A stretch of 32,702 nucleotides of DNA from a virus: the UHGV virus genome UHGV-1394528, one strand, 5' to 3'. The translations under genes and the position numbers were made by a program. Positions 13,539-32,702 of the stretch are shown here, piece after piece (positions within the stretch are counted from its first letter, which is position 1; each line of letters begins with the position of its first letter). Under the pieces are notes generated by a model, which was not told the origin of the DNA, made no database searches, and saw only the letters and a program-made list of their open reading frames with translations.

Positions 13539-14481
13539 GCAGCATCGGAATTAACTGCGGGCAACCCTCGGTGATTACCATCACACCCAGGATTGGTTTC
13601 TTGCGGGTGAGTCTGCCGTAAGCAAAGGCCATGCTCTTACGGTCAATCAGACACCCAGCATACGCACCAAAGTACAAAGCTGTTGAGCTAGCTGCATATT
13701 GCACCTCAAAGCGACCATGTTCGTGACCAAGGACAAGGCTGGTTCTTTCGTGGCTAGCGTTGAGCATGAAGTCACCCGACACTTGATGCTGGAATCTAAC
13801 CGGGCCAAGTGGGGTATTGAGTACCCACGCGTCAGCCCAAGACCACGCCGGGGCACCATGTTCAGGGAAAAGTATATCTCGGTACTTCTTGATGAATTGC
13901 ACTGGTAGCCCGTGAGCTTTCGCCCTGCGGTAAACCAGACTGCCGTGATTGGAATCGCAAACCAATAGGTTCGGGAACAGTTCATGTAGCTCCTCCAGTA
14001 CGAGCTTAGCTTTCTCCAGCTCCACCCCGGCGCTATCCAGGTTCGGGTTACTTTCGTGGAATGATATAGCGTGGCCGTCCGTCTCGTCGCCTACCTGTAC
14101 AACCATGTCCGGACAGTAGGCGTCTCGCACAGATTCTAAGAAGGCCATAGCATCTACGTGCGTATAGGGGGCATGCAAATCCCCAACTACGAGAATACGG
14201 TGGCACACTTCCGGCACGAAGGTTTTGCCGATGTCATCAGTGGGACTGGGCTGTATGAGCTTTAGTGCCTCCTTCATGTGGGATATTGCCTTACCCTTGC
14301 TCCCAGCGTGGTCTAGGAATATGCTGCGCCAGTACTTCACCATCTGTCGATACACCACTGGCTCGTCCAGTCCCGCCAGCTTATTATAGGCGGCAGCAGC
14401 ATCCACGTTAGAGCTGTGCTTGCTCAAGATATCTATGTGTTGCTCTTTGGTGAATAGCTTTATTGTGTTTAACTTAGGCAT
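13501..14481 (-). CDS. calcineurin-like metallophosphoesterase
   Basis: Motifs in canonical order: GDLHAPY (DxH), VGDETDGH (GDxxD), CDSNHG (GNH-like), LGHEH. Confidence 0.7.
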   Translation of the reverse strand: MPKLNTIKLFTKEQHIDILSKHSSNVDAAAAYNKLAGLDEPVVYRQMVKYWRSIFLDHAGSKGKAISHMKEALKLIQPSPTDDIGKTFVPEVCHRILVVGDLHAPYTHVDAMAFLESVRDAYCPDMVVQVGDETDGHAISFHESNPNLDSAGVELEKAKLVLEELHELFPNLLVCDSNHGSLVYRRAKAHGLPVQFIKKYRDILFPEHGAPAWSWADAWVLNTPLGPVRFQHQVSGDFMLNASHERTSLVLGHEHGRFEVQYAASSTALYFGAYAGCLIDRKSMAFAYGRLTRKKPILGVMVITEGCPQLIPMLLDDDGRWVGRTK

Positions 14482-14908
14482 TCCAGCTCCTGTTACTTAT
14501 TACGTCACTAATTACATGTACACCTACACCGTACTTATTAGCAAAGTGTTGCCGCATACCTTTCTTGTATGGGATATAGTTATCCCTGATATCCTGCACA
14601 GCATCCCAAGTTAACTGCGCTTTTGGGTTCCTATCCCCACGCACATCTGGGTTCCTTCCGCGCTCTGCACGGTCCCGCATATTATCCATATGCGTTCCCA
14701 ATACTAAGTGCTTAGGGTTAATGCACCTGGGGTTATCGCAGGTATGTCTAACAGACAGGCCAGCCAGCGCCCTTATATCCAGCCCGTTATGCTCAGCATA
14801 CACCACCCGATGCAGCAGCTCCAATCGCCTGGTCGGCTTATACCATGCCCGGCGGTATCCGTTCTTGTTAAGGCATTTGTTATACCCGTGGTCAATACAC
14901 ATCGACAT
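14474..14908 (-). CDS. HNH homing endonuclease
   Basis: VRHTCDNPRCINPKHLVLGTHMDNMRDRAERGR motif; paralog of the HNH at 19520-19957; SD AAGAGGG upstream. Confidence 0.8.
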   Translation of the reverse strand: MSMCIDHGYNKCLNKNGYRRAWYKPTRRLELLHRVVYAEHNGLDIRALAGLSVRHTCDNPRCINPKHLVLGTHMDNMRDRAERGRNPDVRGDRNPKAQLTWDAVQDIRDNYIPYKKGMRQHFANKYGVGVHVISDVISNRSWNA

Positions 14909-15069
14909 TCGGTACCCTCTTGTGTTGTTCCTACTCGTATCACATTAATTCTCTGTGAATCACAGAATCAAGCTAGAGTCAACAAATAATTTTATTTAAT
15001 TATTTAGTTGACCCCAGTGTATTTCCATGCTACCCTAACCCCCTACACCACCCAAGGGTCCACCTATCA

Positions 15070-19519: not shown

Positions 19520-19957
19520 TTATAGCCTCCAAGTTTTAGCTTTCAACACACCGTGCACTGCTGACACACTCACGCCAAGGCTGGCAGCTATAGCCGGTAT
19601 ACCGTGCTCCCTGCCGTACCGTCTGTAGTTCTCCCTGATATAGCCCACCTGTTGCTCCGTTAGCTTGGAGTACCCATTATGCTCTCCTTTAGAAACCCCG
19701 CGTTTAGCCCTACCCCTGGCAATACAGTCATGGACGTTATCCTTGACCGTACCTAATTCTAAATGCTCGGGATTAATGCATCTCGGGTTGTCACACTTAT
19801 GGCGCACAACTAGCCCCACTATGCTCTCCGGAGATATATCGTTCGCCGAGCAATACACCTTTCTATGCAGGGGTATCTTCCGCCCTTTGAACGTGGTATT
19901 TCCGTAACCCTTTGGTCCGCCTTTCTGTTTGTGCTCTTTACACGCGCCTAATACCAT
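19520..19957 (-). CDS. HNH homing endonuclease
   Basis: VVRHKCDNPRCINPEHLELGTVKDNVHDCIARGR motif plus C-terminal HTH-like segment; sits between primase and helicase genes, overlapping primase 3' end by 20 nt. Confidence 0.8.
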   Translation of the reverse strand: MVLGACKEHKQKGGPKGYGNTTFKGRKIPLHRKVYCSANDISPESIVGLVVRHKCDNPRCINPEHLELGTVKDNVHDCIARGRAKRGVSKGEHNGYSKLTEQQVGYIRENYRRYGREHGIPAIAASLGVSVSAVHGVLKAKTWRL

Positions 19958-20729
19958 CTAATAACTCCTGTATTGTTGCCTCTTTTGGGTCCCCGTCGTA
20001 GTAGATTTCGTGGCACGACATAAAGGGACGTAGCGCGCGCCGTATCATGGCCGCGCCGGAGTGTCCCGCTTGGTCATTATCCAGGGACAGTATCACTGTC
20101 GGTTTGTTCTGTATCAGCCACGCCCTTAACTGCACGGGCAAGCGAGTACCCAGCATAGCTATAGCCTGCACGTTCATTGCAGAGTAGTTCGTAATCGCGT
20201 GCTGATATTTGATCGCTGATAGATAGTCCTCGGTGAGCACGACCTTTAGAGGTGCGGCCGCAGCTACATCCGGCGCTACGGCAGGTGCCGCGGCAGCGAA
20301 CGGCATTGGCTGGCCGTACATTACCCACTTCGGTTGCTGTCGGGCATGCACTGCACGGCCCAGAGCAGCGCTTCCGACACGGAATATTATCCGCTGTTTC
20401 TCTTTGCTCCATTCTGCATCCTCCACCATTTCAGGCATGATTCCCTTTGTGGTCAGGAATCCGTAAAGAAAACTCTGCGTTTCCGCAGGCGCTTGGCTAA
20501 TGCAAATTGCATCTGCAGGTGCAGAGGGCTGCACCCTCGGCTCTTCCTGTAACTGTATGCGCTGGTACTGCTTGTGCTCCTTGCCCACCTGTTTGCAGCG
20601 GTGGCAATAATATTCCCAGGCATCCGGGTTATTGTAGAGCACCCCGGCGGCGTCCCTGCCGCAGCACCGAAAGCGCGCCCTCTGCCCAACGGCCAGGCGC
20701 TTGCACGCTCTAAGCCAGGGCTGGTCCAT
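19938..20729 (-). CDS. DNA primase (zinc-ribbon + TOPRIM)
   Basis: Cys4 zinc ribbon (FRCCGRD...YCHRCK) followed by TOPRIM-like VVLTEDYLSA ... SLDNDQAG. Confidence 0.7.
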   Translation of the reverse strand: MDQPWLRACKRLAVGQRARFRCCGRDAAGVLYNNPDAWEYYCHRCKQVGKEHKQYQRIQLQEEPRVQPSAPADAICISQAPAETQSFLYGFLTTKGIMPEMVEDAEWSKEKQRIIFRVGSAALGRAVHARQQPKWVMYGQPMPFAAAAPAVAPDVAAAAPLKVVLTEDYLSAIKYQHAITNYSAMNVQAIAMLGTRLPVQLRAWLIQNKPTVILSLDNDQAGHSGAAMIRRALRPFMSCHEIYYDGDPKEATIQELLDGIRRV

Positions 20730-27399: not shown

Positions 27400-27830
27400 A
27401 AAGGGATAGCAAAGAGATAGCGCCGGGATAGTGTTGGGTGAGGATGTGCGCCCTAGTGGGGAGCGCGCAGCGTAGCATATAATCGGCACAATGTAAAGCA
27501 CTAGGGATAGCCAGTGGATAGCCTAGTGCATACTAGGGATAGCACCGTGACGCACTACAGCGCACTAGGCAGGCCCACTATGGCCCCACAATGCAGGCAC
27601 TAGGCGGGCCCACTATGGACGCGCAAAATAAGCAAGGCAGAGCGCACCCCTACGGCCCACAGGGAGCGCACAGGGATAGCCCCTAGTGCCCCGTAGAGCG
27701 CACAGGAGCCACTCAGTGCCACGCACAGGCCAAGCCGTGGGGCAGCACTAGCGATAGCCCCAGCGCAGCGCAGGGAGCCACTGAGGCCCTCTGAGGCTTC
27801 CGCTATAGCCACGGTCTTAGCTGCCGTGGC
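27400..27830. repeat. repeat-dense CTAG-rich non-coding region (iteron-like GGGATAGC copies, 24-bp tandem repeat, short palindromes)
   Basis: At least 7 copies of (G)GGATAGC-like octamers (27403, 27414, 27425, 27504, 27516, 27536, 27673, 27751); direct repeat gcactaggcRggcccactatggMc at 27562-27585 and 27597-27620; GAGCGCAC x3. Confidence 0.6.
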
Positions 27831-27979
27831 GCTCCACACCTCAGAGAGCGCCCTAGGGCCGTCTAGACGTCTAGGCACCCACCCCACCCCTCCTTTTATG
27901 CGCTAGGCACCCCCTATGGGGGCAATTGGCGTCGTTGAGGGTGAGGGAGGCTCAAGGGCGAGTATAATAATTTTTGGTT

Positions 27980-28441
27980 TCAGATATACACCTGCCCCGG
28001 GGTGAAGGCCTTGTGTTGCTCTTGACGTTTCTCTAGTACCCACTTGCAGATAACTTCGTAGGAGCTGTGCTTCTTCATGTAACGCTTACCGTCCTTCCAG
28101 AACTCCCCGCGCCAGCAGGTGCCAGTGTAGTATACACCCCTAGGATGTTCCCGCTTAGACCTGCGTGCGTTACAGTTGTTTTCGCTAACCGTAGCTAAGC
28201 GCAGGTTCTCTAATCTGTTGTCACCGGGGTTTTGGTTGATGTGGTCCACCACATATCCGTCTGGAATAGGCCCGTTGTGTAGTTCCCAGATGAGGCGGTG
28301 TGCCTGTATCTTTCTACCAGATACCTGTACCACCCAGTAGCCACGAGTGTTGCGGGTACCCGCTGGAGCACCGGCGCGCCTACCCTTGAGCCACACCAAG
28401 CAGCTAGGGGATGTTGTGTCATATTTGATGTTCATAGACAT
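27980..28441 (-). CDS. HNH homing endonuclease (HNH_3/AP2-like)
   Basis: AHRLIWELHNGPIPDGYVVDHINQNPGDNRLENLRLA; paralog of the HNH at 2699-3175. Confidence 0.8.
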   Translation of the reverse strand: MSMNIKYDTTSPSCLVWLKGRRAGAPAGTRNTRGYWVVQVSGRKIQAHRLIWELHNGPIPDGYVVDHINQNPGDNRLENLRLATVSENNCNARRSKREHPRGVYYTGTCWRGEFWKDGKRYMKKHSSYEVICKWVLEKRQEQHKAFTPGQVYI

Positions 28442-28536
28442 ATCCTCATTTTAAAGTCTAATAAATTTCAGGTCCAGGTATAGACGTGCACCCCAGCAGT
28501 GCCCCGGGATACCGTAGAGATACCCCAGGGAGCTAC

Positions 28537-30492
28537 TTAGAGATACACCTCCCATGCTACCTGGGATACGTCCGCTGCGTTACTGCTCCTAATCACGAAG
28601 CTGTTTAGGTCCGGATTAGGTGTAGGCACATCCTGGTTCTGAGCTACGCCAGTAACCGTCAAGGCCCCAGCACTAGAAGGAAAGGTCAACCGCGTCAACT
28701 TAACCTCAGACACCCACTTGAAGGAGTTAGCTACGCTGCCAAAGTTTCCGCGTACACGGGCGTTGACTGTAGCCTCACCAGCCACCAGCGTTGCCACTCC
28801 ACGGATACCTGTGTCATCCAGTAAGTTCCTGGACATGCGCGGAGGCGTAGGTTGAACGGTGTAGCCGCTCAGCAATGCCCAGAACAAGCCGTGACCGGTC
28901 ATGTCGTTATTGGACATAGATACCAGGGTAGGGTCAATGCCCATAGTCCCGTGGAAGTACACAGCTCTCCCGGTACCGTCGTAGCGCATGCTCACGCCAT
29001 CAATCTCCAGGGATGTCTGCGCTGTCTCAGCTACGTCCTTAGTGACGAAGATGTGAGAGCTGGAGTTGCGGGTGTACCGACCACCCTTAACACGGCCCCC
29101 GTTGATTCGCACACCATTCTGGCTACCGTGAGCCTCGCAGTCATAAACGTAGCCACCGCCGTACGAGCAGTTAAAGCCAGAGCGTACGTTGTCATAAGCT
29201 AGGCACTCCCTATAGATAGGGAAGGCTACACCGGTGTTGGAGGCGAACCCGTCCATAGCTGCACGGTAAGCTCGACAGTTCAAGTACTCCACCCCGTTAG
29301 TGCGCGCTTGGAACCCATCGTCAGCACTGTCGTACGAAACGCAGCGAACGAACTTCACACGCTTACCAATGTCATGAGTATCAAACCCAGCTTGGGTTGT
29401 GCTGTAGGCTTCGCAGTTAACGCCTAAGAACTCGATAGGCTCCCCCCATTTGTCCCCGTCTGCAGTGCTCTGCCAGTTCAGAGAGATTGCGTGGCGTACG
29501 TCCATGGCGTGGATATCGTGTACTTCCGTGTCCTCTGAGCAGCCGAGCACCTCTACCCCGTACCATCCGATGTTGTAGAAGCACGTACCCTTAACGGTAC
29601 TATCTACGCAGTTATTGAACTTGATAGCACTACGCCCTTCTATATCAGAAGCCCCGGGGCGTTTGTTGCCAATAATAACCCCGTCCTGGATGTGCAAGTC
29701 CGCGGCAAAGTTGGCAGAGATACCGATAGTAAAGAACCGGTTCAAATCGTCGTAGCCGAACTCGTTGATGTACGGGGATACTAAGGTTACGTTCTCCACC
29801 ATTGTCGGGATACCTACTTCCGCGGCATCAGACAGGTAGTAGTTATAGTGCAGCGCTTTATCCAGCCGAATACTGGTGACGCCACCGGAGGTGCTAACCC
29901 CCACCACTTTCCTAATCTGGGAAATCTTTACACCGTAGGTGTTAGGACCACCATCACACAGCTTGTTAGAGCGAAGATACAAGTACGTACCTTTTACCGC
30001 AGACAAAGCCCCGGCAGCCACCGTAATGACTTTGCTGCCCGCTGTGGCATCCGCCGCTAACGGGACGAATGCCGAGGGTGCCGAGCCGATAATGTTAAGC
30101 ACTTGACGTGCAACCGAGGCATCCGGCAGGATTCTTCCGGTATCAGTAAACTCCAGCGTAGAGTTGCTTTTGATGTTGAGCACACTCGTGGCCTGCAGGA
30201 CTGTGTCCACAACCAGGTGCCTATTAGGTGCGCTCATGAACGTTACTATGCCCGCCCAATTGCTGAACCAGGAGCTGTATGCCGGACCCACGAATTTACG
30301 GAGTAGATACCCACCAGGTACAGCAAACACAGTTCCGTTATCCACTACCGACGCGGCAGTAGTAAAGGTGAAGTCCCCACCGGCGCTGCCCAGCAGGATA
30401 ATCTTGTCCTGTACCTGAAAGTTTGGATATGCTACCATGCTCGCCAAGTCGGAGAATACCCGCTCTGGAGCTACTAATCTAATTAACGCCAT
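28537..30492 (-). CDS. tailspike protein, probable polysaccharide depolymerase with beta-helix
   Basis: 651 aa; Gly/Asn/Ser/Thr-rich with periodic hydrophobic residues and scattered Cys/aromatics typical of parallel beta-helix depolymerases; ATG follows endolysin stop directly. Confidence 0.7.
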   Translation of the reverse strand: MALIRLVAPERVFSDLASMVAYPNFQVQDKIILLGSAGGDFTFTTAASVVDNGTVFAVPGGYLLRKFVGPAYSSWFSNWAGIVTFMSAPNRHLVVDTVLQATSVLNIKSNSTLEFTDTGRILPDASVARQVLNIIGSAPSAFVPLAADATAGSKVITVAAGALSAVKGTYLYLRSNKLCDGGPNTYGVKISQIRKVVGVSTSGGVTSIRLDKALHYNYYLSDAAEVGIPTMVENVTLVSPYINEFGYDDLNRFFTIGISANFAADLHIQDGVIIGNKRPGASDIEGRSAIKFNNCVDSTVKGTCFYNIGWYGVEVLGCSEDTEVHDIHAMDVRHAISLNWQSTADGDKWGEPIEFLGVNCEAYSTTQAGFDTHDIGKRVKFVRCVSYDSADDGFQARTNGVEYLNCRAYRAAMDGFASNTGVAFPIYRECLAYDNVRSGFNCSYGGGYVYDCEAHGSQNGVRINGGRVKGGRYTRNSSSHIFVTKDVAETAQTSLEIDGVSMRYDGTGRAVYFHGTMGIDPTLVSMSNNDMTGHGLFWALLSGYTVQPTPPRMSRNLLDDTGIRGVATLVAGEATVNARVRGNFGSVANSFKWVSEVKLTRLTFPSSAGALTVTGVAQNQDVPTPNPDLNSFVIRSSNAADVSQVAWEVYL

Positions 30493-31101
30493 TTATCCTC
30501 CGGTCTTAGTAAGAGCTGCCACTGCAGCATTTACATTCTTATACTGATTCCCAATGGCCTTGCTCTGCCACTGTCTGCGCTCCCATAGGCCCCAGCACAC
30601 TTTATTGCGCTGCCCGTTAATATACTGAGAGCAGTCGAAGGTCCAGCGGTTGCTGCCCTTGTACACCCAACCGATGCCCGGGGATTTCTGCTGATACTTG
30701 CTAATATAGCGCCAGTCCAGTACGGCCTTTCCAGCTTCTGCGTAATTCAGGCTTTTGAGGTGCCGCTTCACAGCACTGCCGTTGAAGCCAGCTACGCCTA
30801 CGTTATAAATGAAGTCTACAGACCCAACCAGAGCTACGTCAGAGAGCTGCATAGGAAGCCCGTCAAGAGCCTTTGCATGTGCCCCTGCTGATTCTATCAG
30901 TTGCTTCTGACAATCGCTCAGCGTGGCTCTCTGGCCCATCTTGACGCCCTTTGTCTCCCCGTAGCAGATTGTAGGGACACCGGCACTATCCTTATAGGCG
31001 GTAAGGCTCAATCCCTCGTTGTGCTGAACCACCCCGGTAATAGCACCACCCAGCATAGTGGCCCCCGTGAGGGCCGCAATAACCTTAGTCCTTAAACTCA
31101 T
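30493..31101 (-). CDS. SAR endolysin (lysozyme-like muramidase with N-terminal signal-arrest-release domain)
   Basis: N-terminal Gly/Ala-rich weakly hydrophobic segment KVIAALTGATMLGGAITGVV, then E...D...T pattern HNEGLSLTAYKDSAGVPTICYGETKG as in phage P21 lysozyme. Confidence 0.8.
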   Translation of the reverse strand: MSLRTKVIAALTGATMLGGAITGVVQHNEGLSLTAYKDSAGVPTICYGETKGVKMGQRATLSDCQKQLIESAGAHAKALDGLPMQLSDVALVGSVDFIYNVGVAGFNGSAVKRHLKSLNYAEAGKAVLDWRYISKYQQKSPGIGWVYKGSNRWTFDCSQYINGQRNKVCWGLWERRQWQSKAIGNQYKNVNAAVAALTKTGG

Positions 31102-31336
31102 ATTTAATAGTCCCCTTACGCGCCTGCTCTTCTAGGAGCTTGAATGTACGTCGCTTGTAATACGCATTCCACGCCAGGGTTAGCACTGCGCACACAGTCG
31201 CAGTGATGAAGCTGATAGTGCTCCAGTTCCAGCTCATTAACTCTGCCAACCAACCTCCTGATACCGTAGCGCCGGTAACTGCTGCACCTGCCCGGGTAGC
31301 GAGGTCTGCTCCAACCATGTCTCCCACCTTAATCAT
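31085..31336 (-). CDS. holin (pinholin-like)
   Basis: 83 aa; weakly hydrophobic Gly/Ala-rich TMD1 (AGAAVTGATVSGGWLAELM), hydrophobic TMD2 (TISFITATVCAVLTLAW), charged C-terminus; two in-frame Mets (M1, M7). Confidence 0.6.
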   Translation of the reverse strand: MIKVGDMVGADLATRAGAAVTGATVSGGWLAELMSWNWSTISFITATVCAVLTLAWNAYYKRRTFKLLEEQARKGTIKYEFKD

Positions 31337-31733
31337 CCTGCTGCCCCTTCTTCCTGAACAGCTTACGAATCACCAGAATGACCACTAGGAAGACCAGAGG
31401 AATACTGGCCCCAGCTAATCCGGCGAGGATAAGACTGTAACTATCATTGTTAACCACCTGCAGGCGTTCTGCCTGGATTGTCCCGGTGCTAATAGTTTGC
31501 ACCTGCTTCTTACTGGACGTGTCCAAAGTGCCTACGTTAGAATCCTGTACATCAGTTTTGTTGGTGGTGCTGGAGTCCACCTTGTTATTCAAGCCAACGG
31601 TTTGTTTGGTGTTCTCGGCACCAACCTGAGCAGATACATCCGGCTTAGAACCAACTAATCCGGTGAGTGCAGAGGTCGCCGAGCAACCAGTCAGAGTAAC
31701 CGCGAGCAGCAACCCAGCGACCAGTTTACGCAT
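31329..31733 (-). CDS. lipoprotein with C-terminal transmembrane anchor (unimolecular-spanin-like)
   Basis: Signal peptide plus lipobox MRKLVAGLLLAVTLTGC; polar S/T/Q/N-rich middle; C-terminal TMD LILAGLAGASIPLVFLVVILVI followed by RKLFRKKGQQDD. Confidence 0.55.
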   Translation of the reverse strand: MRKLVAGLLLAVTLTGCSATSALTGLVGSKPDVSAQVGAENTKQTVGLNNKVDSSTTNKTDVQDSNVGTLDTSSKKQVQTISTGTIQAERLQVVNNDSYSLILAGLAGASIPLVFLVVILVIRKLFRKKGQQDD

Positions 31734-31915
31734 TAGCTAGCAGCCTTCACTGCGGCCACCGCGGCTTCAAGCGCAGCAATCTTGGTATCGAAGGCAGCAC
31801 CAGTCTGGGCCACGTTCTGCGGCTGCGTAAGGATAGCATACAGGTCCTTACCGAGAATGTTCAGCTGACGCAACAGCTCCTGCTGTTGCGCTGAGGTTGC
31901 TTTTGCAATTGCCAT
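31733..31915 (-). CDS. hypothetical protein, 60 aa
   Basis: Track ORF, Ala/Gln-rich, overlaps downstream start by 1 nt. Confidence 0.4.
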   Translation of the reverse strand: MAIAKATSAQQQELLRQLNILGKDLYAILTQPQNVAQTGAAFDTKIAALEAAVAAVKAAS

Positions 31916-31926
31916 GTGTACTCTCC

Positions 31927-32301
31927 TTATTCTGCCGCATCAGTGGCGGCTACGAATGCACTCTGCAGTGCAGTGAACGAATCATCAAACGCTGTACCGG
32001 AGCCCTCACCGAGCGGCATACCTGTACCTGTAAGGGCAACGTAGCCGGTCTTAGAGAGCTGTGACAGCATGCTGAACAGGCGCGCCTGCAGCGTACCGTC
32101 ATCCTTAAAGGCTGTACCGGCACGGGTAGCCGTATAGCCCTGGGACTGCATGTACGTGAAGAACGCGTTCAGCTTAGTCAGGGCAGTCGTACCTACGAAG
32201 CCTACGTTGTAGTCCGGCTGCACCTGCTTCTCCAGGTTCTGGCACGTGCCTACAATGGCGTACTGGACGTCCGCAGTTTTAGCTGCGATGATTGATGCCA
32301 T
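31927..32301 (-). CDS. hypothetical protein, 124 aa
   Basis: Track ORF immediately after terminase large subunit stop. Confidence 0.5.
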   Translation of the reverse strand: MASIIAAKTADVQYAIVGTCQNLEKQVQPDYNVGFVGTTALTKLNAFFTYMQSQGYTATRAGTAFKDDGTLQARLFSMLSQLSKTGYVALTGTGMPLGEGSGTAFDDSFTALQSAFVAATDAAE

Positions 32302-32702
32302 TATCTTCTTCCTCTATGTTGTTTACCTCTGCCCCGGTTATGTAGCCGAGCAGCTACACCACGAAGGCCCTTAGACACTTTGCTCTGTGCCCAATCCAGT
32401 GGGTTCTCAATGAAGGCCCGAGCCATCTTCTCAGACTCACGTTCAGCCACCACTTTCTCATCTTCCACCAGATGCCCATTCAGCGTAGCCACCATCATGG
32501 CGATTGCGTCTGCCCGGTCATCCTTCGCAAGGCTACCGCGGTCGTACGTGATACCGGACAACTGCGCGAACGCAGAGTACAGCCAACGCCTATCGCGGGA
32601 ATATGCCATACAGGTACTGATATCGTCGTGAATAGCACGCTCATGCACTACCAGGCGATGGCGACGAGTAACTGGGCTGATTGTGTCGATGATACGACGC
32701 TC
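32301..32702 (-). CDS. terminase large subunit (T7 gp19-like), 3' part; continues beyond window end
   Basis: Frame open to window end; RIIDTISPVTRRHRLVV and YDRGSLAKDDRADAIAMMVA match T7 gp19 C-terminal nuclease-domain blocks (RIIDTLEPVMGRHKLII; ERGSLKHDDRLDALA). Confidence 0.85.
   Translation of the reverse strand, partial: ERRIIDTISPVTRRHRLVVHERAIHDDISTCMAYSRDRRWLYSAFAQLSGITYDRGSLAKDDRADAIAMMVATLNGHLVEDEKVVAERESEKMARAFIENPLDWAQSKVSKGLRGVAARLHNRGRGKQHRGRR

Follow-up and report, generated by a model that had tools for sequence, protein, structure and literature searches.

A predicted unimolecular spanin of the T1 gp11 family encoded in the pinholin/SAR endolysin cassette of a Drulisvirus genome

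The window analysed here is the entire 32,702-nucleotide stretch of the virus genome UHGV-1394528, in which all long ORFs are encoded by the minus strand. A conserved 60-aa ORF and the three genes of a putative lysis cassette follow one another in a chain of overlapping reading frames (Table 1). The TAA stop codon of the 60-aa ORF overlaps the ATG of the spanin gene (TAATG). The spanin gene comes before the holin gene and shares 8 nt with it (31329-31336; junction GGATGATTAA, which holds the spanin stop codon and the holin ATG), and the holin gene in turn shares 17 nt with the gene of a SAR endolysin. The original prediction had placed a spanin candidate immediately upstream of a pinholin gene and overlapping it; this arrangement is borne out by the 8-nt junction and by the matches of the neighbouring protein to PF04971 and phrog_20.

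Table 1. Features of the putative lysis cassette and of the spanin protein (coordinates are those of the window; residue numbers are those of the spanin precursor).
Feature	Coordinates	Strand	Description and basis
SAR endolysin gene	30493..31101	(-)	202-aa lysozyme; Pfam Phage_lysozyme, E 1e-20
Holin gene, pinholin-type	31085..31336	(-)	83 aa; phrog_20, E 5e-17; PF04971, 26.6 bits
u-spanin gene, T1 gp11-family homologue	31329..31733	(-)	134 aa, ATG start; ORF, phrog_1804 and T1 gp11 match
Lipoprotein signal peptide, residues 1-17	31683..31733	(-)	Lipobox rule, Pfam LPAM_1, invariant Cys column
Lipobox LTGC, residues 14-17	31683-31694	(-)	Predicted acylation at Cys17
Periplasmic domain, residues 18-100	31434..31682	(-)	Ser/Thr/Val/Asn/Gln-rich; motif AQVGAENTKQ
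C-terminal TM helix L101-I122, inner-membrane anchor	31368..31433	(-)	Hydropathy, AlphaFold2, family alignment
Basic tail RKLFRKKGQQDD, residues 123-134	31332..31367	(-)	Contains RKLFRKK, directly after the TM helix
Conserved 60-aa ORF	31733..31915	(-)	phrog_7375, unknown function; context, no demonstrated lysis role

The holin protein scores just above the gathering cut-off of the PF04971 model “Bacteriophage P21 holin S” (26 bits). P21 holin S is the pinholin prototype. The holin of the source phage has a single strong TMD at residues 36-60; the segment before it (AGAAVTGATVSGGWLA) is rich in Gly/Ala/Thr and weakly hydrophobic. The designation of this 83-aa neighbour as a pinholin is reasonable because of its phrog_20 and PF04971 matches, its TMD layout and the SAR-type endolysin encoded next door. 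Its small size, the weakly hydrophobic first segment and the SAR endolysin partner fit, as far as can be read from the sequence, the two-TMD layout of S21-type pinholins. The endolysin carries at its N-terminus a Gly/Ala/Thr-rich, weakly hydrophobic segment of the SAR type (KVIAALTGATMLGGAITGVVQ) and is 30% identical to T1 gp12 (E 2e-15) in an alignment that takes in this N-terminal segment.

Two ORFs sit between the large terminase gene and the spanin gene: the 60-aa ORF and a conserved ORF of 124 aa (31927-32301, minus strand; phrog_7128, function unknown) whose start overlaps the stop codon of the large terminase gene (TerL). They were considered as counterparts of the “minor head proteins” gp47 and gp48, which phiKMV encodes after Rz/Rz1, and this assignment was rejected as they have zero similarity to either protein. 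In a related record, a neighbouring gene is annotated “putative structural protein”. On the other side of the cassette, a 651-aa tailspike gene (28537-30492, minus strand) abuts the endolysin gene downstream with zero intergenic gap. The N, Rider and C Pfam domains of a K1 capsule-specific polysaccharide lyase are found in the tailspike (E 9e-40, 3e-37 and 2e-16, respectively), which predicts a specificity for Klebsiella capsule type K1.

The segment 30400-32400 of the window matched 250 phage records with a nucleotide identity of 80-99%. Klebsiella phages account for 234 of them, KpV41 and NTUH-K2044-K1-1 among others, and the matching records for which a lineage is given belong to Drulisvirus (Autographiviridae, Slopekvirinae). 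Judged from its nucleotide sequence, the source phage is thus a Drulisvirus, a KP34-like Klebsiella podophage, and not a Phikmvvirus. Compared with the complete KpV41 genome (44,203 bp), the window is circularly permuted and runs as the reverse complement. Positions 28455-32702, which comprise TerL, the lysis genes and the tailspike gene, correspond to KpV41 43975-39718 with 95.5% identity; beyond 28455 the alignment passes through the terminal-repeat region and on into the early genes. As the window represents about three quarters of a genome, complete KpV41 was used as the stand-in of a close relative.

The segment 27640-28546 leads from the right end of the KpV41 genome, with the tailspike gene, through the terminal repeat region to the left-end early region. 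The direct terminal repeat of roughly 214 bp is present as a single collapsed copy, matched at about 27640-27946; within a permuted window, this means that the physical ends of the genome lie inside it. A 153-aa HNH_3 endonuclease ORF (27980-28441, minus strand; Pfam E 4e-22) occupies a stretch of roughly 456 bp that separates the tailspike gene from the terminal repeat. This stretch is missing from KpV41 and is therefore likely to be a mobile homing-endonuclease insertion at the genome terminus. Two further HNH_3 / His-Me finger endonuclease ORFs (14474-14908 and 19520-19957, both minus strand) lie mostly within segments, 14263-14916 and 19531-20106, for which no KpV41 alignment block of at least 300 bp was found. 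This position suggests that they are additional strain-specific homing-endonuclease insertions.

The complete translation of the spanin gene is MRKLVAGLLLAVTLTGCSATSALTGLVGSKPDVSAQVGAENTKQTVGLNNKVDSSTTNKTDVQDSNVGTLDTSSKKQVQTISTGTIQAERLQVVNNDSYSLILAGLAGASIPLVFLVVILVIRKLFRKKGQQDD. The N-terminus of the protein (MRKLVAGLLLAVTLTGC) has the basic residues R2 and K3, followed by an uncharged hydrophobic core and by LTGC. It fits a lipoprotein rule of the PROSITE PS51257 type as well as the classical lipobox [LVI][ASTVI][GAS]C, and the Pfam LPAM_1 model gives 20.3 bits for a gathering cut-off of 20. At the other end of the chain, the helix LILAGLAGASIPLVFLVVILVI (residues 101-122) is the hydrophobic maximum of the protein (best Kyte-Doolittle mean over 19 residues, 2.66), and RKLFRKK comes after it. 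The C-terminus is placed in the cytoplasm on the grounds of this basic tail and the positive-inside rule. The signal peptide and TMD calls were made by a rule-based pattern, a Pfam model that is barely at its threshold, and hydropathy. Both the lipobox LTGC and the C-terminal transmembrane helix had been proposed from inspection of the sequence, and both stood. Of the start-to-stop candidates in the window that reach 25 aa or more, 1453 in all, the spanin ORF alone combines a credible lipoprotein signal and a membrane helix at the C-terminus.

Cys17 is the sole cysteine of the protein, leaving the periplasmic domain Cys-free. It is followed by Ser at +2, not Asp, and by Ala at +3. In E. coli lipoprotein sorting, Asp at +2 after the lipidated cysteine is the signal for avoidance of the Lol pathway.

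The protein matches end to end the PHROG family phrog_1804 (“Rz-like spanin”, category lysis; E 6e-52) and is 42% identical over 125 aa to gp11 of phage T1 (gene 11 from NC_005833; E 3e-26). The motif PDV(S/T)AQVGAENTKQ falls within the T1 gp11 alignment, as do the lipobox (LTGC/LSGC) and the remainder of the periplasmic domain. The assignment to the T1 gp11 type of unimolecular spanin, put forward initially on the architecture, is in this way extended to sequence homology. The T1 gp11 family was defined by Kongari et al. 2018 as proteins with 40% identity over 40% of the length (PMC6139136; SpaninDataBase). The protein described here, 42% identical over 125 of its 134 aa, falls within the family at identity and length thresholds of at least 40%.

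A tblastn search of 50,697 phage records detected homologues in 1167 of them. In 247 phage records, nearly all from Klebsiella phages, the amino-acid identity is at least 95%. Pectobacterium podophage homologues are 44-51% identical, and among the matches listed those of T1-like Drexlerviridae are mostly 41-56% identical, the lowest being 34-36%. An exhaustive HMMER search over 1.84 billion cluster representatives gave 49 relatives, and we therefore regard the family as small and phage-restricted. An alignment was made of 38 full-length family representatives, T1 gp11 included. The lipobox cysteine, Q36 and G38 are invariant in this alignment, while N41, K43, Q44 and G47 are each at least 90% conserved. 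Asp is found at +2 in none of the 38 sequences. In 36 of them the C-terminus has a hydrophobic helix with 2-5 Lys/Arg residues after it. Two sequences, P0121 and P0144, diverge abruptly after about residue 105-110 and lose the C-terminal TMD; a frameshift in the gene call or an error of sequencing is the probable cause, and not natural TMD-less variation.

This conservation bears on whether the gene is functional. It could be a dispensable or degenerate relic in a phage whose outer membrane is broken by another factor, for instance a cationic peptide of the disruptin type as in phiKT. Our literature search found no experimental work on Drulisvirus spanins, the cassette is flanked by several small ORFs without an assigned function, and disruption of the outer membrane without a spanin occurs in other podophages (bioRxiv 10.1101/515445). 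Against such a relic stand the identity of at least 95% in 247 phage records and the retention of both membrane anchors in 36 of 38 diverse representatives, from which we argue that purifying selection acts on the full spanin architecture. Loss of function is consequently considered very unlikely, and a working spanin is the preferred reading.

The exact 134-aa protein is encoded by 416 contigs and bears the NCBI name “putative spanin [Klebsiella phage VLC5]”. Related GenBank records label the gene “U-spanin”, “Rz-like spanin” or “spanin”. “Outer membrane lipoprotein SlyB” is the name that some automated sources give to the identical protein, and the entry of one homologue reads plainly “lipoprotein”. 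These names would suit an ordinary phage outer-membrane lipoprotein with another job, such as superinfection exclusion or receptor masking in the manner of T5 Llp or Cor, whose position in the cassette would be coincidental. A profile search, in which no relative of solved structure was found, points weakly in the same direction, its matches being weak N-terminal ones to RcsF and BamD, two lipoproteins of the outer membrane (E 0.36-0.62). However, these matches are insignificant and involve the signal peptide region alone, whereas the homology to gp11 is full-length and T1 gene 11 complements the lysis defect of lambda Rz/Rz1 (PMC6139136). Nor would a simple outer-membrane lipoprotein be expected to have a conserved TMD and basic tail at its C-terminus, and the gene overlaps that of the holin. 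A non-lytic lipoprotein is therefore highly improbable, and the protein is treated hereafter as a spanin.

The AlphaFold2 monomer model, computed with a 35-sequence family alignment, has a mean pLDDT of 62.6. Its only confident helices are the signal peptide (residues 2-26) and the C-terminal anchor (residues 98-129, block pLDDT 73-89). No secondary structure is modelled for the periplasmic domain, where pLDDT is below 50 in most of residues 32-82, among them 37-67. For the T1 gp11 family, secondary-structure predictors had given a periplasmic domain with at least four beta-strands after a short helix (PMC6139136). This pattern is neither confirmed nor contradicted by the model because of the low confidence of its periplasmic part.

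Annotation as “Rz-like spanin”, which is the name of the PHROG family and is found in many RefSeq entries, might indicate that the protein is the i-spanin half of a two-component system, with a separate o-spanin lipoprotein encoded elsewhere. We have searched for such a partner by a six-frame lipoprotein scan from every ATG, GTG and TTG of the window and of the complete 44,203-bp KpV41 genome. No credible lipobox ORF other than the spanin gene was identified in either sequence. The weak hits left over either lie antisense to genes or sit in another frame within the gene for the RNA polymerase, the latter with h-regions some 5 residues long. A TMD scan of the coding-strand ORFs of the window and of complete KpV41 yielded no i-spanin-sized protein with an N-terminal TMD; the other membrane ORFs on this strand code for peptides of 52-72 aa. 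The lipoprotein scan was controlled with the phiKMV lysis region, where it recovered Rz1 (66 aa, lipobox LTAC), an ORF that overlaps Rz in the 3′ part of that gene. The check for an Rz1-like ORF that accompanied the original prediction thus gave none in the window or in KpV41, and a second spanin system was rejected, both a further credible lipobox ORF and an i-spanin layout being missing from the two sequences. Since the window spans some three quarters of the genome, it is on KpV41 that the genome-wide absence of Rz/Rz1 rests.

A two-component system consists of an i-spanin with an N-terminal TMD and a coiled-coil periplasmic domain and of a separate o-spanin lipoprotein gene, which may be embedded, overlapping or set apart. 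The protein itself does not have this organisation either: its one chain bears the lipobox together with a TMD that is C-terminal instead of N-terminal, with no partner ORF found. Direct comparison with phiKMV Rz revealed no sequence similarity, and the PHROG name is a generic one for the function. An i-spanin assignment has in our opinion next to no chance of being correct. By analogy with T1 gp11, from which its function is assigned by homology, the product of 31329..31733 is very probably a unimolecular spanin of the T1 gp11 family acting as the third component of the phage lysis system.

T1 gp11, the prototype unimolecular spanin, has 133 aa compared with 134 aa here. The two proteins have in common the lipobox (LSGC in T1), Ser at +2, the motif AQVGAENTKQ, a Cys-free periplasmic domain, the C-terminal TMD and the basic tail, and each accompanies a SAR-type lysozyme. 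The sequences of their TMDs are not conserved. They also differ in gene order, which is holin-endolysin-spanin in T1 and spanin-holin-endolysin in the source phage, and in the type of virus, T1 being a Drexlerviridae siphovirus and the source phage an Autographiviridae podovirus. The T1 gp11 family of Kongari et al. 2018 has 28 members, KP34, F19, NTUH-K2044-K1-1 and LIMElight among them (Table 5 of PMC6139136). Nearly all are paired with pinholin/SAR-endolysin systems, and a periplasmic cysteine is absent from all 58 u-spanins that the same study describes (PMC6139136).

Among the closest known systems are KP34p54 and its homologues (“Kp34likevirus”/Drulisvirus): the same gene in the same genus, with proteins 95-100% identical in the 247 records. 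In KP34 the genes for the u-spanin, the holin and the SAR endolysin follow in the same order as in the source phage, downstream of the large terminase gene. No substantive difference from KP34p54 was found, and the window is a further isolate or assembly of the genus. Eriksson et al. 2015 reported this gene order in KP34, F19, NTUH-K2044-K1-1, SU503 and SU552A and argued that the KP34-type holin is a pinholin; they made the cassette a genus criterion, contrasted with the holin-endolysin-Rz-Rz1 order of phiKMV (PMC4411677). The spanin described here is thus not new. The literature already treats it as a hallmark of Drulisvirus, and a named entry for the identical protein has been deposited.

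The original prediction had set the single-protein spanin against the nested Rz/Rz1 of phiKMV-type phages. The contrast is correct, with the qualifications that the source phage is assigned to Drulisvirus (Slopekvirinae) and not to Phikmvvirus and that the contrast itself was already published (PMC4411677). It is no anomaly, being a published genus-defining trait (PMC4411677). phiKMV Rz/Rz1 would carry out the same last step of lysis, also with pinholin and SAR endolysin partners, and in both phages, which have Autographiviridae genomes, the spanin genes lie downstream of the large terminase gene. In phiKMV, however, this step involves two proteins, whose genes overlap in the 3′ part of Rz, and the order is holin-endolysin-Rz/Rz1. 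The u-spanin-holin-SAR endolysin order is shared with Pectobacterium phages of the genus Phimunavirus (phiM1, CB5), whose homologues are those 44-51% identical; the cassette of these phiM1-like phages was described by Buttimer et al. 2018 (PMC6115819). Pantoea phage LIMElight, a member of the T1 gp11 family (PMC6139136), is likewise said to have a KP34-like lysis cassette (PMC4411677). Phimunavirus and LIMElight differ from the source phage in genus and in host, and their sequence similarity to it is moderate.

The sequence analysis establishes the anatomy of the spanin, its homology to T1 gp11, the conservation of both anchors, its place in the cassette and the lack of another spanin in the window and in KpV41. 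Lipidation, sorting, membrane fusion and a requirement for lysis are features that we infer from the work on T1 gp11 and from general lipoprotein biology. After export of the spanin precursor by the Sec pathway, Cys17 would be lipidated and the signal peptide removed by signal peptidase II. The acylated N-terminus, which has Ser at +2, would then go to the outer membrane, while helix 101-122 would stay in the inner membrane with its basic tail in the cytoplasm. As both ends would be anchored in membranes, a single polypeptide would span the periplasm, its polar linker of roughly 83 residues threading the peptidoglycan mesh. At the onset of lysis the pinholin would depolarise the inner membrane, which would free the SAR endolysin for degradation of the peptidoglycan. 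The spanins, now free to move laterally, would oligomerise and change conformation or collapse, fusing the inner and outer membranes and allowing the virions out. This is the model put forward for T1 gp11 (PMC6139136; reviewed in PMC7830690). Two additions to it are speculative and rather doubtful: the leading position of the spanin gene and the overlaps between the genes might set the stoichiometry or timing of spanin and holin synthesis by translational coupling and, separately, the periplasmic domain, a polar chain that would be unstructured as a monomer, might fold to beta-structure only upon oligomerisation after loss of the peptidoglycan.

Drulisvirus phages are widely used candidates for therapy against Klebsiella. 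The correct annotation of 31329-31733 is u-spanin, neither “Rz-like” i-spanin nor “SlyB”. If folding of the periplasmic domain on oligomerisation were true, the protein would be a minimal membrane fusogen operating by a disorder-to-order transition. The spanin of the source phage provides a further data point for the gp11 family as one common to T1-like siphophages and to KP34-like and phiM1-like podophages.
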